Source: a virus
DNA: 64,000 nucleotides
Virus record (IMG/VR): IMGVR_UViG_3300045988_152007
Location: 124,475 to 188,474 of that record
Strand: one strand, 5' to 3'
The notes below the pieces were generated by a model. It saw only the letters and a program-made list of their open reading frames with translations. It had not been told where the DNA came from and searched no databases. The translations under genes and the position numbers were made by a program. This document shows positions 1 through 21,675 of this stretch, in pieces; position 1 is the first letter of the stretch, and every line of letters starts with the position of its first letter.

Positions 1-2109
1 CTTGGTGTTTATCCTAAAAAAGATGCTACTGATAGTTGGCCAAGTAATAATAATTCTTCTAATGAAAATAATAATAATAATAATAAAAATGACAATTATA
101 AAGATGATAACACATTAGATCCGGGTTTTGGTATTCCTGCCTCTTGGTGGCGTAAAGGCCAAGGGACTGGAGATTTAGAAAATTACGGCATTATGCTAAT
201 ATCTAATACAAAAGAATTAGATCCAGGTTTTATGGTACCAGAGCTAGGTTCTACAGTGTTAGATCCAGATTTTATGTTACCACCAGATCAAGAAAATAAT
301 GCAAATAAAAATAATAATTCTTCTAATGATAAGTCTGATGATAATAATAATAATACAACGATTAATGAATCTAAAGAATATTATTTAACTATAATAAAAA
401 ATATAGATAATAAAAATATTTTAGGCTATTATGATAGCGAAGGCTAGTGGATTTAGGTTTACGAATTAACTGAAGAACTTTCATTAAGAAATATAGAAAA
501 TTTTTTAAATACTATTAAAATTAATTATTATATTAAAATTATTAAAGATATAAATTTTGATGAAAAAAATAAGGATTATGATTTTAGTTTTATTGATTCT
601 AATAATTTAATTTCTATAAATAATACTATTGTTGCTAGTTATAAATTAATTAGTTACAATGAATCTAAAAAGAAGACAGAATATAGTTATGTATTTCCTA
701 ATAATTATCCAGTAATAAAAAATAAAAATAATGAAACTGTTATTACTGAAGAAGAACACAACGATTTAGTTAAAAAATTATTAGAATATTATAAAACAAA
801 TAAAGATGATTTAACTTCAGATATTGAACTAATTTATAGTTATAAAAATATGGAAGAAATTCCTAAAGATGATTCATCTAAGCCAAATAAACCTGGCAAT
901 TCAGAAGATAATAATATACCTGGTCCTACTCCTAGAGATCCAAATTATGGAATTATGCCTTTAGATGTTTTAGATCCAGGTTTTACATTAAAACCCAATG
1001 AAGAGAATAATAATAAAGATAATACATCAAATGGAAATACATCGGGAGGAAGTAATTTATTGTTACCATTCTTAGATCCAGTAGATGGTAAAAAAGATTA
1101 GTTAAAAATCTTAGGTGATTAGGAAGATATAATAAAAAAAATTTTTATTTTGCGTGATGATGGTAATTATTCATTAAATGAAATTATTGAAGAAATTACT
1201 AAAGCTTATAATTCTAATATTCTTGATTTTTCTACTATTAATGATAATAATAAAATTAAAATTATTACATATACTCCTAAAGAACCTCCTTTTGATTATG
1301 AAGATAATTTTTATTTTACTTTAATTGGTACTCCTTGTAATGAATGGCGTGAAGAATTATTTAGACAAGCTTTATTAAATAATGAAAATGGCACTCAGAA
1401 AGGAGACTATGATGATGAATTATTAGCTAAAATAGATGGTGAATATCTGTGGCGTAAACAAATATTTAATCCTTAGAATGAAACTTGGCATGAAGAATGG
1501 CGGAATCAAATTGATTAGATTGAATCAAAAAATTCTTCTGAAAAAAATCAAAATGAAGAAATCATACCTGATACTTGGATTGGATGGAATCCTGCTATTT
1601 ATCTTGATCCTAGCTTAATAACATATTGGTTAGATTTTATTGATGTAGATTAGTTAGTATCTAGATATTCAGTTAATAAAATAGGTCGGCGTACTAAAGC
1701 ATTGACTAAAACTAATATGAGTCTTTTATATAAATTAGAAGTGCCTGATATCATATTTTTTGAAAATACTGGGGAAGCAGATTTAATTCAAAAGATAGAA
1801 GATTATACATTAAAAGGTTAGGCTTATTGTGCTTTAAAACCGGGGCAAATGAAATTATTTAGTTCTAGCGGAACAGGAAGTACGGCATTTGATTATATAA
1901 GAGAAATGTTATATTAGTATTTAATTTATAATTTAACTGTTACTATTAACTGTGCGCCAAGATATTATTTAGAACCTAATAATTTAATTTATATAAATGA
2001 TAGAAAAAGTAATATACAAGGGGAATTTGTTATAACTCAATATACTCTTCCTTTAACTTATAATGGAAATATGTCGATTACAACAAATGAAGCTTTAACA
2101 AGAGTATAA
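1..2109 (+). CDS. Large structural protein, truncated at its 5' end, with repeated LDPGF motifs. Probably a tail or baseplate component. It contains many in-frame TAG codons.
   Basis: One continuous frame runs through ORF-track pieces 193-447, 850-1101 and 1150-1476 and on to TAA at 2107-2109, once TAG is read as sense. A GGAGG Shine-Dalgarno for the next gene follows immediately. The C-terminal part is beta-rich. Confidence 0.5.
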
Positions 2110-2120
2110 GGAGGTAAATA

Positions 2121-2822
2121 ATGGGAATTCAATTTAAACAAATTGTTTATAATTTAGAGGACTATGGTGGTTCTGGTGGATTAGTTTCTACTAAATAGGG
2201 AGATTTATCTGAATTAGTATATAGTGCTGTATATCAGAATAATTTAAATGATTCTACTGAAACTACTACCAATGATGAAACAGATTATGAAAATAAAAAA
2301 ATAGATATTTTTGGAGTTAATATTTTAAAAGGCTTCAATAATGTAAAAAAAATAGGTATTTAGGCGCCCCCTGGTACTAAATTCACTTTTAATAAAGCAA
2401 CTACGCAAGATACTGGAGAATGGATTATGGTTGGACGTACTGGTATTTATGAACTTAATGATGATATTGTAATTAATTATTTAAGATTTCAACGTCCTTA
2501 GAATTATATTGTAAATAAAGAATTAAGTCAATAGTTATAGGCTACTGGAACTGGAATAATGAAAGTGGCAAGAGATATATTTTTATAGAAAATTAATGAA
2601 TTAGAAAAAACATTAGGTTAGGCTCCTGATCGCACTGAAGCTGGTTCAGAATATTGGACTGAATATAATAATGCTCATCAAAATTATATAACTTAGTATA
2701 AAAGTGGTTTAGGAATTTATTTAAAAGGTAAAGCAGGAGTATATGTACCTGATCCAACTATTGTAGATTTATATAATATAATTATAGACTTTACTTATGA
2801 AACATATGAAGGGGGAGACTAA
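2121..2822 (+). CDS. Hypothetical late or structural protein of about 233 aa, with about 8 in-frame TAG codons.
   Basis: GGAGGT Shine-Dalgarno 8 nt upstream of ATG 2121. The frame stays open to TAA 2820-2822 only if TAG is sense. Confidence 0.45.
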
Positions 2823-2825
2823 TAA

Positions 2826-5723
2826 ATGTATAGCTTTTATGGGGGACAAAAAGGGCAAGACTTTAAAATAACACGAATATTTGCCAATCGTGCTATTGAC
2901 ATGGTTGGAGATTTAAAAGCAAGATGGACTTCTCCTGTAAATGTTGGAGATTATGTTTTTATTAATTATGGTGATCCATCTTATATGAATGAAGAAACCT
3001 CCAACTATAATATTAATCTTCAGATAGATTTAAAAGATAGCGGAAAATCATATACTAATTCATTGTGGTAGAAAATCTATGTAGATAGAAATTTAACAGT
3101 TTCTCCAGATTTTCCTTAGAATGATAATAATATTTATATTTTCTTAAATTTAGAAGAAGATAATAAAGAAGAATATGGAGAATCTCTTCATGAAGTATCT
3201 GATTTAGAAAGTGAAGAATGTTTTGGTTTTGGATATCGTTTAATTGCTTGCGTAACTGGCGTTACTCCTCGTATTCAAGTATTTCATTAGACTATAGATA
3301 TTGAAGATGGAGATCCTTATGTTACTTTAGATTTAACCAATCCTGATACTCCTAAAATTAAATTTTATTTACAACGTGGATAGCGTATTGAAGAAGTATA
3401 TAAAAATATAGTTGGCTCTTAGGAAGATCCAAATGTTTATTTTAAAACTGAAGGAACTTATTTTGATAAAAATGGAAATATTAAGACAGCAACATTAACT
3501 AGGCCTCAATTAACTTTTGATTTGCCTAAAGCTCCAACATTTTTTTCTGGTTCTTTATTTGGATTAGGACCATTATCTTATTTTCATAATATGGGTAATT
3601 ATAAAACTTATGGATATCAAAATTATGATTATAAATATACAATTCGGGAAAATTAGGTTTCTATACTATCACGAATTTCGTATTATTTATTGCATATCCT
3701 AAAAGAAGATAAAATAATATATGATGAAAATGGGAATATTATTGATAATAAACATTTTTTCAATAATAATTTAAATGCAATATATACTTAGCCTGATGAA
3801 AGAGTTTTATTTAATCCTCAAAATAATTTAAAAATAACTAAATTATCTTAGCAATTATATACTTATTTAGTTGATAATTTTAAATTATAGCAAATTAAAA
3901 ATGAGTTAAAATATGAATGGTACTGGATAGATTCAGAATATAATCCAAGTAGCCAATAGAATTTATTTTATTTATTTAATGATATGTATCCTAGATCTTT
4001 GATTTAGGTTGATCAAATAATATATTCTTTATTTAATATTTTATTAAAGTTAATAAATAATAATAAAAAAGATGACATTAGTTCTGTATATTATTTTGAA
4101 AATAGTAGTATAGCTAATTATTGTTTATCAATATTAGCTGAATATGCTACATTAGGAGATCATTTTTATGATATAACTAATAATGGCTATAAAGCTGATT
4201 TCTATATAAATGAGCCAACTGGGAAAATTTATAGCTTATATGAGATAACTTCTTCTTAGATTACTGGCATTTATTTAGGGGCTATTACAGCACCGGCTCC
4301 ATTAGCTAAAACAGAATTAGTTGATTCTTTTATTAAAGATAAAGATAATAGTTACATTAAAAATTAGATTGTAGTTGAAAGTGGTATTTTAGAAGAAGAT
4401 AATATTGGTACTTATTAGGAAATTTTTAATTTTTCCATTCCTAAATATCCTGATATATCAATAAAAACTATAAATGTTAAAAATGAATAGACTTATAAAG
4501 TATCTAATATAAAACCTATAAGTAAAAATATGGAACAAATCGATTTAGAAACTCCTTTGCCTATCCATATCCTTACTCCTAAAAATTCTGGATTAACTGT
4601 TTCTATAGATACAATTAATAATAATATTGAAAAAGTAATAGGTAATAAAGAGAGTTATATTGGTCCTATTCTTTCTAAAAATGATTTATTTATTAATATT
4701 ACAGATAATTTAAGTGATTCTACACGTGGACATATTTTTTAGTATAAAAAAGATCCAGTCCAATCATTAGAAGATTAGGAGTTTTTATTTGATAATTGGG
4801 AAAAAATTGGTACTTTAACTGGTTTGCCTGGAATCCCATTAGCTAAAAAAATTATTAATATAACTGCTGTAGAACATTTATCAAATAATATTGTTTATGA
4901 AGGTTCTGAGGGCAATGGTAATAATGATTATATTTTTAATTACAATATTTTAAAAACATATTATGTAGATCATGTTAATGATGGATTAGAATTTATTATC
5001 AAACAAATATTAAATGGAACTAAATTAAATCAAGAAGCAATAAAAAATGCAGGTAGTAGCACTCCATAGTTAATAATTAATTTTGGAGATAATGCTGGGG
5101 CTAATTTGCCTGATTTAACAATTAATTCTGACAGTGGAGAAGTAATTCTTATTAATTTTTATAATCCTACATTAACTAGCAGTTATTGGGGACTTTATAT
5201 TCAAAATAATTGGGATTTAATATCTGTTTCAGGTAACAGCCAGGATTCTATTATTTCAATACAATAGAATCCTTAGCAAGAAATTAGTAAAAAAACTGCT
5301 TATTCTAGTTGGTATTTAGATACTCAATATTTAAACAATAATTTAGTTTGGAATAAATGGATTGGAATTACTACAAAAAATCTTGTAGATACTTCAATAT
5401 CTATTGATGGAATTTCAAAAACAAATATCCCAAAATTTACAGCTAAAGAAGGAGATAAAATAACAATTCATACACTTAGTAGGAATAAATCTACAACGGA
5501 AATAGGAGAAATAACTAGTAAAATTTTTTATAATAATACGTTGATGAAAGAATCTGCTAAATGTTAGGTTGCTCCGTCAGAAGGATTATGGGGATATGCT
5601 GAAGTAACTTATGAATTTAACTTAAAGAATGATATATCTATTAAAGTCATAAGTGAAAAATATCCAGATTCTTCTCCTTATGTTTTTGGGCAAAATGTTT
5701 ATATTACAGATTATTTAGATTAA
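2826..5723 (+). CDS. Large structural protein of about 965 aa, TAG-dense. Putatively a tail fibre or baseplate protein.
   Basis: ATG 2826 directly follows the previous stop. A single frame runs to TAA 5721-5723 and joins ORF-track fragments 2826-3071, 4530-4742 and 4824-5069 across more than 20 TAG codons. Confidence 0.5.
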
Positions 5724-7013: not shown

Positions 7014-7286
7014 ATGTTCAACACAAGTAATGGTTATAGTTTAGCTGATATTGCCGCAGCCACAGGCGGTAATGGATACCGTAATGGTGATGATGGTATG
7101 TGGGGTAATGGTGCATGGTGGATAATTATTCTCTTCCTTTTCTGCTTCAATGGCTGGGGCGGAAATGGCTGGGGTAACGGCGCCAATGGTTCTGGATATC
7201 AGGGAACTACAACAAGAGAAGAATTAACTTATGGCTTTGATGTAAGTGTTGAAAATGCCAGTCTTATTATAGAAAGGGTGGCTTGA
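7014..7286 (+). CDS. Small Gly/Trp/Asn-rich membrane protein.
   Basis: AAAGGAGGA Shine-Dalgarno. Hydrophobic core AWWIIILFLFCF flanked by GNGWGNGANGSG repeats. Ends with TGA, so TGA is a stop here. Confidence 0.45.
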   Translation: MFNTSNGYSLADIAAATGGNGYRNGDDGMWGNGAWWIIILFLFCFNGWGGNGWGNGANGSGYQGTTTREELTYGFDVSVENASLIIERVA

Positions 7287-14566: not shown

Positions 14567-17500
14567 TTATTCTTCATCTTCTGCTACTCCTTGATATCGT
14601 TCACTTCTTAAAATTAAATCTCCATTTGATTGAATAGTGTCAATATGATAAAGTTGATGACCAGGAGTTGAGGCGTACTTTTTAGCAATAAAATCATCGC
14701 CTGAGCGAATACCCTGAACCACAATCATATTACCGCGATTAAACCAAGATTTTTCAATAATTTTTTTAGTTCCATCAGGTTGTTTTTGAGAAATTTGTTT
14801 ATCGAATAATGTAAAATATTCTTTTCTGAATTTTACATTTACTACTCCTGTCGGAGTAAGAATTGTTACAATACTTTTATTTTTATTTTTAGCAATACAA
14901 GTACCACATAATTTAGATAAATAATAAATATTTATTGTTTTTCCAGCTTTAACAAAACTTCTCTCTACTACTGGATCTTCAGGTAAACTGTAAAAATCAG
15001 CAAACCCATATTTACTTTGATTAACTTGAGCCAATTCATGTTCATGATAATAGAAGCATAATACTTCCATTTCCCAAGCTGAATAATTTACTTTAGGACA
15101 ATATTTTTTCCAATCGTCTTTAAATATAATTTCATTTAATTTATTTAAAATTTCTTCTTTATTATCAGCAATCTGTTTACGATAAACATCCATCCAGCCT
15201 TGATAAACTTTATCATTCCAATCTTTAATATTTAAATAAAAGTTAGAATCTTTACTTTGAATTAAATCATCTTTATCAATTTTTTGCAAGAAATCAATAG
15301 CTCTATCATCCAATTTGTAATAAACTTTATCATATTTACAAATTTGTTTTAAATAACGAGTAAATTCATAAATGTGTAAAGCCTGCTGCCGTTCAAGAGT
15401 ATCCGCAGGAAGAAGATTGAATTTCATTAAAGTAGCTAAATTTTGAAGATTAAGATTTTTCTTTTTATCACAAGTTTCCCAAATATACCAGACCATACAA
15501 AGTTTTCTATCCATCATATGATCAAATGCTCCACCTTTAATAAGTGAAATCATTGCTTGCTTATTAGGATTAACTTTATTTAAAAAATCTCTTGGGGATT
15601 TATAAGGTCTATTTTCAATAATAGTTTTAACTACATCATCACCAACATTTAGCATACCTTTTAAGCCAAACAGGATTTGATTATTTTCAACATCAGGAAT
15701 AAAACTAAATTCTGATTTATTAATATCAGCAAGACTTACTTGAATACCAGCTTTACGAATGTCTCCAATAGCCTTAGCAATCTTTCCATAATCAGTAGAA
15801 TTAGTTTTTCTTACTTTTGATTTTTTATCTGGCAAATCTTCAAAAGTAACACCATTGGCTAAATCATCTGCTTCAGGATCATAAATATCTACGATTTCTT
15901 CTTCGCTATTATCTTCTAAAGAACCGCTATTAACAATCAAACAAGCACAATTCCAATAGATAGGATTATAATGAATAACAAAATAAATCATTTGAATAGC
16001 TACGAAACTATAAGGTAGACTATGATTTAATGAAAACGCATATCCTAATTGTGGTGCTACTGCTGTTTCCCAAAAATATTCTGCATCATTTTTATTATCA
16101 AAACGACTAAATACTTGTTCTTTTAATTGAGGAATTTTAGCCATTTGTTTTTTAGCAACAACTTTACGGGCGGAATTTGCTTCTCCCAATGTAAAATGTG
16201 CTATGTCCATAAGGATTTCCATCATTTGCTCTTGCAAAGGGCAACAACCATAATATTTATCGCAATGCTTATGGAATTTATCAATAAGTTCTTGCGGCAA
16301 ATGATGTTGTTTCATTTCTTGATCAAATGCTTGGATACCTTGATGCTGAATACGATAAAATCTATCTTGCTGTGATTCTTTACCCTTTTCAGACATAAGA
16401 CGCATCATAGCATTAGCCGCAGTCATTTCCATAGGATCTTGCGGTTTTAATTTTTTAGCAATAGCTAATCCTACACCAGTAGAAAACTGAAAACAGTCTA
16501 ATACATCTCCAGTTGCAAGATGATCCCAAATTTTTTGATCAGTTGTATCTATTACTTCTGGATGAATATATTGATTATAAAAATCTCTTAAAGATAAGTC
16601 AGGAATTTCTTTTGCCTTTAATAATAATTCATAACAAGTAATAATTTTATCAGAAGCTTCAGTAACAAGGAAATCATATTTTGTATCACCTGCTGCTTCA
16701 GCTTGATGTAAATCCCAACAAGTAATTAAACTGCCACTAGGCGTTCTCATAAATGCCGCTGTATCATATGGATCATCGCCATAAAGAATAACACCAGAAG
16801 CATGAGAAGAACGTTTATTAACGATACCACCAATGTAAATAATTATATCAAGAAGCCCTGGATATTCATTTACTTTATTAACAAATGTTTTAACAGGCTT
16901 TCTATCTTTTTCTTCATTACCATAAATAACATCATTAATTTCCCATAAGAATCCACGTTCTTGTGGAATAAGAGAGGACATATATTGAGCTTCATCTACA
17001 TTAATACCATTTGGATATTTATCAGACCTATAACCTCTACAAGCCGTAAGAATAGCAGATTTAGTAGTTTCAGTACCAAATGTAGCTACCTGAATTAATC
17101 CTAATTCTCCACGCTCTTTACGAATAGCTTCAAAAATCGCTGGACGTTTTGAAGGAGCCAAATCAATATCAATATCAGGCAATTCAGCTCTCTCTTTATT
17201 CAAGAATCTCCAATATGGTAGACCCCATCGAATTGGATCCAATTGGGTTATTCCCAATAGATAGTTAGATAAGAAACCTGTGGCCGAACCACGTCCAGGA
17301 CCTACGATAGAACCACAATCCCAAAATAAGTCAATATAATGTTTAAAAGTATTAAAATAAGCAAAAAGGCAATCATCCAATTTTTCGCCAATATCTTTTA
17401 TAATATCAGCTTCAATTTCAAGACGATCTAAATAAATGTTTAATTTATCATCTGAAATGCTTTTGTTATACATTTTTTCTAATAAAGATATATAACACTC

Positions 17501-18568
17501 ATTAACCCAATATCTTTCTTGCGGATTATCACTCATTAATAAACTACATAAAATAGGATATTTTTCTGTACGTTCGAACCAGCCAGTTAATGATTGAGGA
17601 TAATCTAATACTTCTACTTTTGGAATTATTTGTTTTCTCTCAAGAGAAAAATCTTCAATTTTATTTTGAATTTCAAGAGTATTATTTAAAATTTCTTTAG
17701 CTATTTCTTCTGGCTGCTCTTCAATATCTAAATATATAAAACAAGGGGTAATTAAATCAAAAACTTCATCATAAGTCATTAAATGAGCAAATTCATAAAA
17801 TTTGTCAACTTCTCGTTCTCCATCTTTTGAATTAAGATAAGCCTTATGAATTGGTCTATCTTCTTTCGTTAAATAATGGCTATCAGTAGCAACTTCTACT
17901 TTAATTCCATATTTATGACCGATTTTATAAATCATATGGTTTACAAGTTTTTGATCTGCCGCAGTCGATGGAGCAATCTCTAAATAGAAATCTTCATCAA
18001 ATAAGTCTTGACAGAAAGTAAGAAAAGTATCTATTTGTTTTAAAATTTGATATAATTCATAATTATTCTCTTGTTCTTTATATTCTACAGCTTTTAAAAG
18101 ACAAGTACCTAATTCTCCACCAATACAGGCAGTAGTGGCAATTAAATGTCCCTTATATTTCTCTACTACTGATTTTAATTCATTCTTTAAAAGTGGAACA
18201 CGTTCCATTTTTCTATCAACATATAAATTTTGCCAAGCAATTGAGCTTAATTCTTTTAATGCTCGATATCCTATAGCATCTTTAGCAATTAAAATAAAAT
18301 GGTAATACTTTTGTCCTGTGCTTCTATCATCAGTTAAATAAATTTCATTGCCTAATGCTATTTTAAATTTTGGATATTTTTCTTTGATTTTTTTAGCATA
18401 TTGATTTACTGTCATATGAGCAGAAAGACTTTCGTGATCTGTGATAGCAATTCCCGAAAGTCCTAATTCAATAGCTTTATCAATTAAAGTTTCTGGCTTA
18501 TTTATACAATCCAGTAAACGGAGGTTCGAATATTCAGTATGATTATGACAATTAAAATAAGTGTTCAT
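14567..18568 (-). CDS. dnaE: DnaE-type (Pol III alpha-like) replicative DNA polymerase. 1333 aa, no TAG.
   Basis: N-terminal PHP motif CHNHTEYSNLRLLDC. Length and overall organisation fit a C-family polymerase. Confidence 0.75.
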   Translation of the reverse strand: MNTYFNCHNHTEYSNLRLLDCINKPETLIDKAIELGLSGIAITDHESLSAHMTVNQYAKKIKEKYPKFKIALGNEIYLTDDRSTGQKYYHFILIAKDAIGYRALKELSSIAWQNLYVDRKMERVPLLKNELKSVVEKYKGHLIATTACIGGELGTCLLKAVEYKEQENNYELYQILKQIDTFLTFCQDLFDEDFYLEIAPSTAADQKLVNHMIYKIGHKYGIKVEVATDSHYLTKEDRPIHKAYLNSKDGEREVDKFYEFAHLMTYDEVFDLITPCFIYLDIEEQPEEIAKEILNNTLEIQNKIEDFSLERKQIIPKVEVLDYPQSLTGWFERTEKYPILCSLLMSDNPQERYWVNECYISLLEKMYNKSISDDKLNIYLDRLEIEADIIKDIGEKLDDCLFAYFNTFKHYIDLFWDCGSIVGPGRGSATGFLSNYLLGITQLDPIRWGLPYWRFLNKERAELPDIDIDLAPSKRPAIFEAIRKERGELGLIQVATFGTETTKSAILTACRGYRSDKYPNGINVDEAQYMSSLIPQERGFLWEINDVIYGNEEKDRKPVKTFVNKVNEYPGLLDIIIYIGGIVNKRSSHASGVILYGDDPYDTAAFMRTPSGSLITCWDLHQAEAAGDTKYDFLVTEASDKIITCYELLLKAKEIPDLSLRDFYNQYIHPEVIDTTDQKIWDHLATGDVLDCFQFSTGVGLAIAKKLKPQDPMEMTAANAMMRLMSEKGKESQQDRFYRIQHQGIQAFDQEMKQHHLPQELIDKFHKHCDKYYGCCPLQEQMMEILMDIAHFTLGEANSARKVVAKKQMAKIPQLKEQVFSRFDNKNDAEYFWETAVAPQLGYAFSLNHSLPYSFVAIQMIYFVIHYNPIYWNCACLIVNSGSLEDNSEEEIVDIYDPEADDLANGVTFEDLPDKKSKVRKTNSTDYGKIAKAIGDIRKAGIQVSLADINKSEFSFIPDVENNQILFGLKGMLNVGDDVVKTIIENRPYKSPRDFLNKVNPNKQAMISLIKGGAFDHMMDRKLCMVWYIWETCDKKKNLNLQNLATLMKFNLLPADTLERQQALHIYEFTRYLKQICKYDKVYYKLDDRAIDFLQKIDKDDLIQSKDSNFYLNIKDWNDKVYQGWMDVYRKQIADNKEEILNKLNEIIFKDDWKKYCPKVNYSAWEMEVLCFYYHEHELAQVNQSKYGFADFYSLPEDPVVERSFVKAGKTINIYYLSKLCGTCIAKNKNKSIVTILTPTGVVNVKFRKEYFTLFDKQISQKQPDGTKKIIEKSWFNRGNMIVVQGIRSGDDFIAKKYASTPGHQLYHIDTIQSNGDLILRSERYQGVAEDEE

Positions 18569-19134
18569 TTTTTTCTTTCCTGCCTCAGCCTACCTGTTCT
18601 TTGTCGTTCTAAATAATTATGTTTCTTTTTATTTTCTTCAGTAAAAACTTCGGGCATAATAGTTTTATGATTTTGACCTAACCATATTGCTTGAAACCCT
18701 CTCTTTGTAATTTTATCTTTAAATAGCTCATAAGCATCAGATACACAGATATTACAATTATTATACATTGTTCTAATTTGAATAACTTCTTCTTTAGTTA
18801 ATTTAGAATTTGTTTTTACAGCACTTACATTATACCCGCCATCTCCGCCTGGTGTTTCATTATACCCATTATTAAAAGAGTCATAATAGATAATCCAGTA
18901 TTGTTCTCTATTATTCCCAAATTTATTATAAGTTTCTTCATCCATTGGCTCGATAATTTCAAAATTAAAATTATCTATGCCATATTTTCTAAAAGCTTTA
19001 TATAAATTTTTATCCCATTCTTTGGAGTCATTATAATGAGAAGTATGATAAATCCATCTATCTTCTATATCTTTAGATTTACCTATATAAATTTTATTAT
19101 TCTATTTATTTGTTATTTTATAAATGCCAAACAT
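18565..19134 (-). CDS. GIY-YIG homing endonuclease with 1 TAG.
   Basis: FGIYKITNK...KIYIGKSKDIEDRW plus conserved Arg, Glu and Asn. Its stop overlaps the dnaE start (ATGA). AGGAGGG Shine-Dalgarno. Confidence 0.75.
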
Positions 19135-19246
19135 AAGCATCCCTCCTCATTATATTATGGAAATCAACTTATTTGGAATGCATAAAATTGTCCTTATGGC
19201 AACCAAAATAAGTATTCAATTCCCTACCTCCTTAATTTATTATTAT

Positions 19247-20078: not shown

Positions 20079-20142
20079 TATATTATTTCCTTATAACTAC
20101 TAATTTTTCACTGGCTCTTGTAATGCCAGTATATAAATATTT

Positions 20143-21271
20143 CTAATGTTCTAATGTGTCAAAAGGATGGGCCTCTTCAATTAATAACACTTTATCCCAT
20201 TCACTACCTTGAGCTTTCCAAACAGTTATTGCATAAGCATAAGCAAAATAATAAGGAGCTTCTAATGCATCAGAATTTCTAGCAAAACTATTCATTCTAA
20301 ATGCTTGCTTATTATCAAAGGCTGGAGTACCTGTAATTAAAGCATCATAATCAATAGGTATAGATTCAAATCTTCCATTAGGTATATCCATCCCCGTAAA
20401 CATATATTGGAGTTGTTTATTATAAATAAAGCTTGGATAATTATATGGAATAATTTGATAATTAGTAATTGTTCCAATACATCCATTAGTTAAAGGCCAT
20501 AATCCATCAGTAGATGTAAAATCCCAATGATTAGTTAATCCTATGATTTTATCTCCTATTTCTGGAGTAGCTCCTCGTCCTTGTCGCTCTCGAACTTTAT
20601 TATTAATTTCAATACGTCTTTTATTAGAAGCACATAAAGTTTGATCTGCCCAATCATACATTTCTGGAATTAATTCATATGGCCTTAAAATCTAGACCTA
20701 TTCTTTAGCTACTGGGAATTGCCCAAGGGGCTTACCTTCTCGTACCCACATAGATAATCTAATAATTTCACTATCTTGTGCCTGTCGCATAATTTCATCT
20801 AAAAAAATATGTGGTTTATCCAAAACGTGATTATTTTCATTTAAGTCTACTGGTGGAAGCTAAAATGGATCGCCACAAGCAATTACATATTTATGATGTG
20901 AAAGAAGTAAATCCCACATTGTTTTAGGTAACATTGATATTTCATCTACAATGATTACTTTATATGGAATAGGCCATCTTTTTTTTAAATAAAATGTACC
21001 ATTGGGTCTTGGCTTAGCTTCATATAATAACTTGTGTGCTGTTGTTGCATTAGGACATCCTTTTGTTTGAAGAATAGTTGCTGCTTTACCAGTATAAGCT
21101 ACATATGCTACATCAGTTTCAGGATTTAAATTCAATGATTGAACTATAAATTTTACTAATGTAGATTTGCCCGTTCCAGTTAAGCGTAGCCAGCAATACA
21201 AGTATAAGGTTCACGGCTCTTGTATCTGGCTACGGCAATTTTCAATCCAGCATTCTATTTATCAGTCAGTA
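20143..21271 (-). CDS. Dda/RecD-like SF1 helicase, interrupted by an apparent -1 frameshift near its 5' end, and containing TAGs.
   Basis: GTGKST Walker A, IIVDEISM Walker B and GDPFQLPP motif III. About 30 aa of N-terminal sequence (LTDKQNAGLKIAVARYKSREPYTCIAGYA) lie in another frame, beginning at a TTG with an AAGGAGA Shine-Dalgarno. Confidence 0.65.
21187..21231 (-). other. 15-bp stem-loop located exactly over the helicase frameshift point.
   Basis: GTAGCCAG-ca-ATACAAG ... CTTGTAT-CTGGCTAC. Confidence 0.6.
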
Positions 21272-21675
21272 TCAATGGGATTTACTTCTCCTTTCCATAT
21301 AAATTCATCATTCTCAAAGATTAGCTTCATTGGTTTTTCTTGAACTGTGGGAATAATATAAACATAATCTTCATCAAATGGCATTTTTAATCTGCTATCA
21401 CCATTTTCATCAAAAATTTCTAAATCATATTTTCGATTTGAGCTTTCGGTTTCTACGCCTGCTCTTGGCCGGAGCATAGCCATTTTTTTGTTACCCCTAC
21501 CGCCTCTAATTTCATAGGCATCACAAGGAGCTATTTTATTAAATTCATCAAGTTTAGCTGTTAAATCATTAATAGCTCTTCCAGCTTCTTCAGCTGAAAT
21601 ACCAAAGCTACCCCAAGAAGCAGCCATTTTATTTATAAGTTTATTAAATTCATCTTCATTGAACGAAGTATTCAT
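21262..21675 (-). CDS. Hypothetical protein.
   Basis: 137-aa ORF. Confidence 0.5.
   Translation of the reverse strand: MNTSFNEDEFNKLINKMAASWGSFGISAEEAGRAINDLTAKLDEFNKIAPCDAYEIRGGRGNKKMAMLRPRAGVETESSNRKYDLEIFDENGDSRLKMPFDEDYVYIIPTVQEKPMKLIFENDEFIWKGEVNPIDTD

Follow-up and report, generated by a model that had tools for sequence, protein, structure and literature searches.

A hairpin-associated stop-codon interruption in the P-loop of a phage Dda/RecD2-like helicase gene: a probable short translational bypass

A 64-kb stretch of the viral genome IMGVR_UViG_3300045988_152007 (hereafter the window, out of roughly 185 kb) encodes on its minus strand a Dda/RecD2-like helicase whose reading frame is broken by a stop codon just ahead of the Walker A motif. 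The gene is likely to undergo programmed short translational bypassing, a "stop-hop" in which the ribosome would pass over 5 nucleotides (nt) from GCU to ACU, driven by an RNA hairpin on the 5' side. The interruption is widespread among relatives and selectively maintained, and a stop codon, a near-Ala landing triplet and a hairpin accompany it in every case.

The helicase gene has a single ribosome-binding site, the Shine-Dalgarno (SD) sequence AAGGAGA at 21287-21293, which serves the first open reading frame (ORF1, 21183-21275). ORF1 starts with TTG at 21275-21273 and runs for 31 codons to an Ala codon (MILTDKQNAGLKIAVARYKSREPYTCIAGYA). The encoded peptide, MILTDK(TAG=Q)NAGLKIAVARYKSREPYTCIAGYA, comprises the N-terminus of the helicase with strand beta-1, and its residues align one to one with those at the N-termini of uninterrupted homologues. 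Its 3' end reads GGC TAC GCT TAA. Here GCT (21183-21185) would be the take-off codon, occupying the P site once the stop enters the A site, and TAA (21180-21182, tetranucleotide UAAC) closes the frame. DNA alignment places a 5-nt coding gap, TAACT, at 21178-21182, which is missing from uninterrupted homologues. Its last three letters, ACT (21178-21180), match GCT at two of three positions and form the proposed landing triplet, immediately 5' of the resume codon GGA at 21177-21175. This GGA opens ORF2 (20083-21177), which lies in the -1 frame relative to ORF1 and consists of 364 codons followed by TAA at 20085-20083. ORF2 begins with Walker A (GTGKST) and holds all the helicase motifs in its frame, including Walker B (VIIVDEIS) and motif III (GDPFQLPP), and it has neither an SD nor a conserved start of its own. 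ORF1 and ORF2 joined without the 5 nt give 395 amino acids (aa), colinear both with P0001-P0005, which are the closest proteins in the database, and with the best 120 homologues (393-398 aa). An earlier note on this DNA had already pointed out the SD, the TTG start and the TAA closing the N-terminal frame, all of which are present on the minus strand, and it rightly saw that the helicase motifs stand in another frame. It also placed a 15-bp hairpin at the junction. A hairpin is indeed found there (8+7 bp, 21233-21186), but it lies entirely 5' of the junction and ends before the last ORF1 codon. The 1-nt indel that the note considered gives way, in comparison with homologues, to the 5-nt insertion TAACT (21182-21178). 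The gene end that it set at 20143 is an in-frame TAG aligned with Gln; the reading of TAG as Gln had been missed and the 3' end was therefore misplaced, the real stop being the TAA at 20085-20083.

Judging from the alignments, the genome reads TAG as Gln (genetic code 15). Five in-frame TAGs occur in the helicase gene, one in ORF1 (21257-21255) and four in ORF2 (20862-20860, 20700-20698, 20694-20692 and 20145-20143). They align with conserved Gln in homologues, and one of them sits inside motif III (GDPF-TAG-LPP). The total ORF length in the window rises from 18,038 to 25,162 aa once TAG is read through. The recoding reaches replication genes, beyond late genes alone. ARAGORN found no tRNA gene, and hence no suppressor tRNA(CUA), within the 64-kb window.

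The joined product is predicted to be a superfamily 1B (SF1B) helicase of the Dda/RecD2 type, with Walker A, Walker B, motif III (GDxxQLPP) and a C-terminal UvrD_C_2 domain. In Pfam it exceeds the curated cut-offs of AAA_30 (3.9e-19), AAA_19, UvrD_C_2 (1.4e-13) and Viral_helicase1, and with PIF1 it scores 25.6 bits, just under the cut-off of 25.9 bits. A sequence search of the PDB returned RecD2 (3E1S) and Dda (3UPU), and the nearest solved structures align over the junction with no gap. The proteins P0001-P0005 are 90-95% identical to the joined product, 395 aa long and uninterrupted; at the junction they read CIAGYAGTGKST (wider stretch YTCIAGYAGTGKSTL). The clusters P0008, P0009 and P0110, with 573, 105 and 31 member sequences, represent 283-aa internal gene calls. 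Exact look-up of the ORF under the standard code found nothing on record. Megablast of the region against cultured phages gave zero matches, so that there is no annotated close relative among them. By tblastn, only relatives of at most 40% identity were obtained, annotated as Dda-like or RecD-like, and all of them are uninterrupted.

The interruption is shared by many relatives of the phage. The first contigs fetched behind the internal gene calls (loci L001-L008) are interrupted at the same site as the window. They read GCT-TAA-CT-GGA in L001-L003 and L007, GCT-TGA-CT-GGA in L004-L006, and GCT-TAA-GCT-GGG in the more distant L008, and their divergence from the window, about 5% or more of positions, is mostly synonymous. 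A pattern scan of IMG/VR and metagenomes, in which any insert of 0-30 nt was allowed between the GYA and TGKS codons, found the interruption in 13 of 18 matches in IMG/VR and in 15 of 35 metagenome loci; combined with the earlier loci, there are 36 interrupted and 29 uninterrupted ones. In a separate, protein-based retrieval, 11 of the 80 best helicase relatives in IMG/VR proved to be interrupted, which added new lineages, namely those whose loop reads GSGKS (L102/103/105) and one, 48% identical, with VISGYA (L143). Four further interrupted loci came from a scan of species-representative genomes, on contigs of metagenome-assembled genomes (MAGs) binned with low-GC Firmicutes; a fifth match, L147, was a chance occurrence of the pattern and was discarded. 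Assemblies under different names, from the Logan, ENA and IMG collections, supplied the contigs, among them ERZ1035037 NODE_1 at cov 1215. With more than 25 independent assemblies, which differ mostly at synonymous positions, the interruption is real, and the assembly error considered in the earlier note is excluded. The comparison with related phage genomes that the note had proposed thus finds a recurrent interruption with a constant site grammar.

Interrupted alleles are scattered across the helicase tree, and the uninterrupted alleles L009-L011 sit inside the same phage clade as interrupted ones. The four loci from the genome scan (L145, L146, L148 and L149) carry the MAG labels Gemmiger formicilis, Mollicutes, Anaeroplasmatales and Bacilli (sheep colon). 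These labels and the strong AAAGGAGG SDs hint at low-GC Firmicutes of the gut as hosts, bearing in mind that the binning of phage contigs is unreliable; the phage itself has 29.5% GC. Another side observation is that the 5' ends of contigs L001, L002 and L003, from different runs, fall within about 25 nt of each other, inside a 137-aa gene that lies upstream of the helicase; strain-level heterogeneity or a repeat may break up assemblies at this place.

The site follows a strict grammar. The gap measures 5 nt in 24 of the 36 interrupted loci, 6 nt in six, 7 nt in two and 8 nt in four, and the genome scan supplied more; all three frame relations therefore occur at the homologous site, through these four lengths. 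There are 17 distinct gaps: TAACT, TGACT, TGACC, TAACC, TAAGCT, TAAGTT, TAAGCC, TAAGCA, TAAAGCT, TAAAACT, TAACTCG, TAACGTA, TAAAAGTT, TGAAGGTT, TAAAAGTA, TGAAGGCA and TAAATGCT. The codon before the gap is Ala (GCT, GCC or GCG) in all 36 loci and in the interrupted loci found later, and every gap opens with TAA or TGA, never with TAG, a sense codon in this genome. The landing triplets over the 17 gaps are GCT/GCC/GCA, ACT/ACC/TCG and GTT/GTA, each at most one base and never two away from GCN, and the triplet directly precedes the Gly codon (GGN) that opens GxGK[ST]. Perfect GCT-TAA-GCT hops exist among the relatives, in L008, L022, L055, L012 and L149. Deletion of the gap restores the family consensus CIAGYA/GTGKST and leaves an intact ORF of 350-367 codons in every full-length locus. 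Gap length can differ behind a near-identical ORF1, as in L019 (TAACT, 5 nt) versus L014 (TAAGTT, 6 nt). Substitutions are more frequent in the gap than in its flanks (20% vs 9.5%, p = 0.035), which is modest support for relaxed constraint there.

The signals for initiation are equally regular. Every interrupted allele has a AAAGGAGG-type SD and a TTG or ATG exactly 30 codons ahead of the take-off Ala, so that ORF1 is always exactly 31 codons long and ends with GYA, and start signals for ORF2 are missing from all of these alleles. Alleles with a 6-nt gap have ORF2 in the frame of ORF1, beyond the stop, and no ATG, GTG or TTG precedes the P-loop lysine there (read in L008). In this class, neither a frameshift nor internal initiation can thus serve ORF2. 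The stop context in the 5-nt class, including the window, is UAAC or UGAC, and these are reportedly the weakest termination contexts in E. coli. One regularity of the gaps has no explanation in the hop model. In two pairs of loci with 8-nt gaps, L036/L045 and L026/L048, which are close relatives otherwise, positions 2 and 5 change together (TAAAAG vs TGAAGG). An SD-like AAGG/GAAGG element might account for this, as might exchange between two types of cassette.

The hairpin at 21186-21233 consists of GTAGCCAG-ATACAAG and CTTGTAT-tg-CTGGCTAC, that is 8+7 bp with a 2-nt bulge and a 16-nt loop, and the last base of its 3' arm directly precedes the GCT take-off codon. Its minimum free energy (MFE) in the window is -20.2 kcal/mol, with z = -2.4 against dinucleotide shuffles and z = -3.9 against resampling of synonymous codons. 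For comparison among alleles, the 54 nt ending at the take-off codon were folded in each. In the pattern-based sample the mean was -20.3 kcal/mol for 22 distinct interrupted alleles and -10.3 for 25 uninterrupted ones (Mann-Whitney p = 6e-9). The z scores against synonymous resampling lay mostly between -3 and -6 in interrupted alleles, with two weaker ones at -1.5 and -2.6, and most of those in uninterrupted alleles were near 0. The independent protein-based sample gave zero overlap: ten interrupted alleles at -18.4 or below and 49 uninterrupted ones at -17.6 or above, with means of -20.5 vs -8.9. The hairpin is found in every interrupted allele and in almost no uninterrupted one. Under the structure of the window, 95.5% of the cells pair in interrupted alleles vs 65.9% in uninterrupted ones.

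Conservation at silent positions follows the pairing. Paired third-codon positions (GTA, GCC, TAC, GGC) are invariant and those in the loop and the bulge are variable. Several changes preserve pairing. The terminal G-C pair becomes G.U, the loop-closing G-C is C-G in L018/L028, and a pair in shifted register reads G-C, A-U and G.U among L026, L022 and L048. In L143 the whole stem has been re-written into a perfect, compensated 12-bp stem (ATAGCCAGATAT/ATATCTGGCTAT). The G.U pairs point to a hairpin that acts as sense-strand RNA. On the downstream side, the next 60 nt hold no conserved structure, with equal MFE in interrupted and uninterrupted alleles, and no A-site or 3' stem-loop was found. 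Rfam has no family in 20800-21500. A scan of the whole window for a stop with a near-cognate landing triplet and a long downstream ORF listed 226 candidates and no convincing second site; by energy of the upstream hairpin, the helicase site is the first of the 226. A GCT/ACT candidate at 7284 was rejected, having its own SD and ATG. Among the uninterrupted alleles, L049 retains most of the hairpin (-17.6 kcal/mol, same 5' arm GTAGCCAGATACAAG) and L023 has a different strong one (-18.3). Uninterrupted alleles of this sort (L049, L044, L023) may have reverted by losing the gap, or the element may have arisen from such forms.

By their substitution patterns, both parts of the gene are under purifying selection. 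Among interrupted alleles, the ratio of nonsynonymous to synonymous divergence (dN/dS) of ORF2 is 0.04-0.2 in unsaturated pairs, and the dN/dS values of ORF1 are 0.014/0.158 and 0.028/0.160, dN being far below dS. Between interrupted lineages dS exceeds 1. Given this depth, the scatter over the tree and the purifying selection, the interruption is either old or repeatedly transferred, and the helicase gene is functional either way.

How might a functional helicase be made from such a gene? Initiation would take place at the only start site, TTG 21275, and 31 codons would be translated, which would bring GCU (Ala) into the P site and UAA, in the poor termination context UAAC, into the A site. 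Instead of terminating, the peptidyl-tRNA-Ala would unpair, the mRNA would slide by 5 nt (5-8 nt among relatives) and the tRNA would re-pair on the near-cognate ACU. Decoding would restart at GGA to give ...CIAGYA-GTGKST..., with a P-loop identical to that of uninterrupted homologues, and the protein would hold the junction peptide EPYTCIAGYAGTGK. The 3' arm of the hairpin occupies the 17 nt just behind the P-site codon and at take-off must therefore be unpaired inside the ribosome. Most likely, the hairpin would refold as its 3' arm exits the ribosome and would draw the mRNA forward, a role that has also been proposed for the stem-loop on the 5' side in T4 gene 60; zipping of the outer 8 bp on emergence could give a pull of about the observed hop length. 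The components have precedents: stop-hops and hops with minimal re-pairing are known, and pairing of exiting mRNA has been proposed as a forward driver (PMC5009743; bioRxiv 10.1101/2024.12.09.627546). A frame-independent hop of this kind would be a single mechanism covering every gap-length class. We infer the hop, its efficiency and the role of the hairpin from sequence.

Several points weigh against a bypass. The joined ORF1-ORF2 polypeptide is itself a predicted product, and the 5' hairpin abutting the P-site codon is a putative stimulator. In the window, GCU and ACU match at two of three positions, with an A.C mismatch at the first, whereas the codons of classical hops are matched. In E. 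coli, stop-hops without stimulation reportedly have a low efficiency, about 1%. Formal covariation in the hairpin is weak, with most stem pairs invariant, and part of the stem conservation could be due to shared descent or segment transfer. The case for the hairpin is built on conservation at synonymous sites, the tie to the interruption and a few compensatory changes. The element is also dispensable, since the uninterrupted alleles L009-L011 occur within the same phage clade. Finally, the variation of 5-nt and 8-nt gaps is also synonymous or conservative if read in the -1 frame (LT; LKV/LKA), so that a translated gap keeps some probability for these two classes.

The last point leads to the best of the alternatives, a -1 (or +2) frameshift at GCU_UAA by which the gap would be translated as a two-residue insertion, GYA-LT-GTGKST; sister alleles would use +1 shifting (7 nt) or readthrough (6 nt). 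ORF2 literally lies in the -1 frame. In that reading every 5-nt gap is Leu-Thr, four of the five 8-nt gaps are Leu-Lys-Val/Ala and the fifth (L149) is Leu-Asn-Ala, with differences that look synonymous, and A-LTGT-GKS fits the formal Walker A pattern [AG]x4GK[ST]. However, the site (C_UAC_GCU_UAA) has no X_XXY_YYZ heptamer, tRNA-Ala would be unable to re-pair at CGC after a -1 slip, and the only structure lies on the 5' side, where a 3' stimulator would be expected. Three recoding mechanisms would be required at one homologous site in closely related alleles. Translated 7-nt gaps would insert variable residues (KA, KT, NS, NV), and the insertion is absent from all uninterrupted homologues examined and from the nearest solved structures. 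The earlier note had offered a programmed frameshift, an attenuating structure or a 1-nt assembly error as explanations. Of the first, programmed recoding is supported and the -1 shift is opposed by the lack of a slippery heptamer, the 5' structure and gaps of 5-8 nt. We consider such a shift unlikely; its product would hold the peptide EPYTCIAGYALTGTGK in place of EPYTCIAGYAGTGK.

A split gene is a very unlikely alternative to the proposed hop. Here ORF1 would simply end at TAA and ORF2 would be re-initiated at the in-frame TTG 21201 (MYCWLRLTGTGKST...) to make a truncated helicase. The ORF listing does contain a TTG-initiated ORF at 20860-21201, and public gene callers started these genes internally (the 283-aa P0008, P0009 and P0110). 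However, no SD precedes TTG 21201, and a protein started there would have R instead of A/G at the first Walker A position and would lose strand beta-1 and the N-terminal helix. The 6-nt class, in which ORF2 is in frame with no ATG, GTG or TTG before the catalytic Lys (L008), does not fit either, and no selection is expected on a discarded peptide, whereas ORF1 is conserved as a protein of always 31 codons ending with GYA. Still less likely is that the gap is removed or absent at the level of nucleic acid, through mRNA editing or processing or in a genome subpopulation, with ordinary translation making the helicase. An RNA-processing activity might in principle recognise the hairpin, but we know of no bacterial or phage mechanism that removes 5-8 nt from mRNA. 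The hairpin does not include the gap, transcriptional slippage would lack a homopolymer, and consensus assemblies from many samples, including ones of very high coverage, all retain the gap. An inactivating lesion in a dispensable helicase or a sequencing or assembly artefact, the latter suggested in the earlier note and the former in keeping with the coexistence of interrupted and uninterrupted alleles in one phage clade, is effectively refuted by recurrence in more than 25 independent assemblies, by ORF2 being intact in every full-length locus with dN/dS of 0.04-0.2 over dS >1, and by the conserved grammar of stop, landing triplet and hairpin around an insertion unlike a homopolymer error.

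The surroundings of the gene are rich in endonuclease genes, and the 5' side of the helicase is a hot spot of free-standing homing endonucleases. In L009 (about 2010-3010, plus strand), and also in L010, L011 and L020, there is a gene of ~330 aa, open only with TAG as Gln. It encodes three WxCxCxCG...SCGC repeats (Zn-finger-repeat) and a C-terminal PD-(D/E)XK-like nuclease domain (...IEFDGEQH...), and matches PHROG families annotated as homing/HNH endonuclease. It stands directly upstream of uninterrupted helicases that belong to two distinct lineages. The helicase of L009-11 has had its first ~55 codons replaced in a manner resembling co-conversion. This endonuclease-linked replacement erased the bypass element, and it argues neither way on whether the element protects from the endonuclease. 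In L026, an HNH gene (PF13391; phrog_2255) reaching from 505 nt upstream of the helicase start to +14 adjoins a helicase with an 8-nt gap, recalling mobA beside T4 gene 60. The window itself has a GIY-YIG endonuclease ORF at 18565-19146 on the minus strand (Pfam PF01541, E = 1.6e-7), just upstream of and overlapping the start of the DNA polymerase III alpha gene (dnaE, 14567-18616). L001, L004 and L009 have only a spacer of about 100 nt at this place, and the ORF is probably a free-standing homing endonuclease insertion.

Natural programmed bypassing has been described in very few systems, namely T4 gene 60 with its homologues, the byps of yeast mitochondria and a candidate from a Streptomyces phage. 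If the proposed hop is true, the helicase would add a rare natural case, and a minimal one of about 55 nt made of one hairpin, a stop and a landing triplet. The 17 gap sequences in four length classes, along with compensated and weakened stems, would be a ready-made mutational series on the effect of exiting-mRNA structure on ribosome sliding. For annotation, gene callers split or truncate the helicase, as in P0008, P0009 and P0110, and in phage genomes of the gut and the rumen such sites would be mistaken for errors or pseudogenes. It is possible, but doubtful, that the hairpin-Ala-stop-gap module is a self-contained mobile bypass cassette, the second natural phage bypassing system and independent of T4 gene 60, in which refolding of the 5' hairpin drags the mRNA by 5-8 nt. 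The cassette may persist because it alters conserved P-loop DNA targeted by neighbouring homing endonucleases (cf. MobA/gene 60), or because it ties helicase output to release factor 2 (RF2).

Among known recoding systems, canonical -1 frameshifting, as in dnaX and phage tail G/GT genes, resembles the helicase site in the net -1 change in the window and in the RNA structure near the site. It differs in that the helicase has no slippery heptamer, has its structure on the wrong side and also needs 0 and +1 changes, and in that only one product would be useful, ORF1 alone being 31 aa. Two other bypassing systems are more remote. The candidate in Streptomyces phage Hau3's terminase gene makes use of UUA, a rare sense codon, and its role is considered regulatory (PMC10732093), and the byps of Magnusiomyces capitatus mitochondria are mobile inserts of 27-55 nt in a relaxed decoding system. 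Neither has the architecture of a 5' hairpin plus a stop, and neither is located in a helicase P-loop.

The closest natural parallel is T4 gene 60. There, as would be the case in the helicase, two ORFs in a phage gene of DNA metabolism together yield one protein, a stop stands directly 3' of the take-off codon, and the peptidyl-tRNA re-pairs at a landing triplet with decoding resumed at the next codon. A stem-loop lying 5' to the take-off site has been proposed as forward driver that forms on the exiting mRNA (PMC5009743; bioRxiv 10.1101/2024.12.09.627546), and homing-endonuclease genes adjoin the interrupted gene in some genomes, as in the MobA cassette. However, the gap is 50 nt in gene 60 and 5-8 nt in the helicase, and no A-site or extended stem-loop was found at the helicase site. 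The helicase hairpin abuts the take-off codon, whereas the stem-loop of gene 60 is 9 nt away. The take-off tRNA is Gly in gene 60 and Ala in the helicase, where landing is often only near-cognate. The two share no sequence homology. Moreover, an endonuclease gene is usually absent from interrupted helicases, and in L009-11 and L020 it accompanies uninterrupted ones.

The helicase site also resembles the stop-hops of E. coli, synthetic or adventitious events (Weiss et al. 1987; O'Connor 1989; Kane 1992) that include +5 and +6 hops (reviewed in PMC5009743). In these, a slow A-site stop is crossed between matched codons, so that 9 nt yield one amino acid, just as GCT-TAA-GCT would in L008, L022 and L055. 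Natural short stop-hops were expected, with no natural in-frame occurrence known (PMC5009743), and our full-text search of a non-exhaustive literature library found no description of a hop in a helicase. The class of mechanism is known, and a natural, deeply conserved, hairpin-coupled stop-hop of 5-8 nt in a helicase P-loop, as proposed here, appears to be new. The E. coli hops are low-efficiency events in artificial constructs without stimulators, whereas the helicase site is natural, deeply conserved and coupled to a hairpin.

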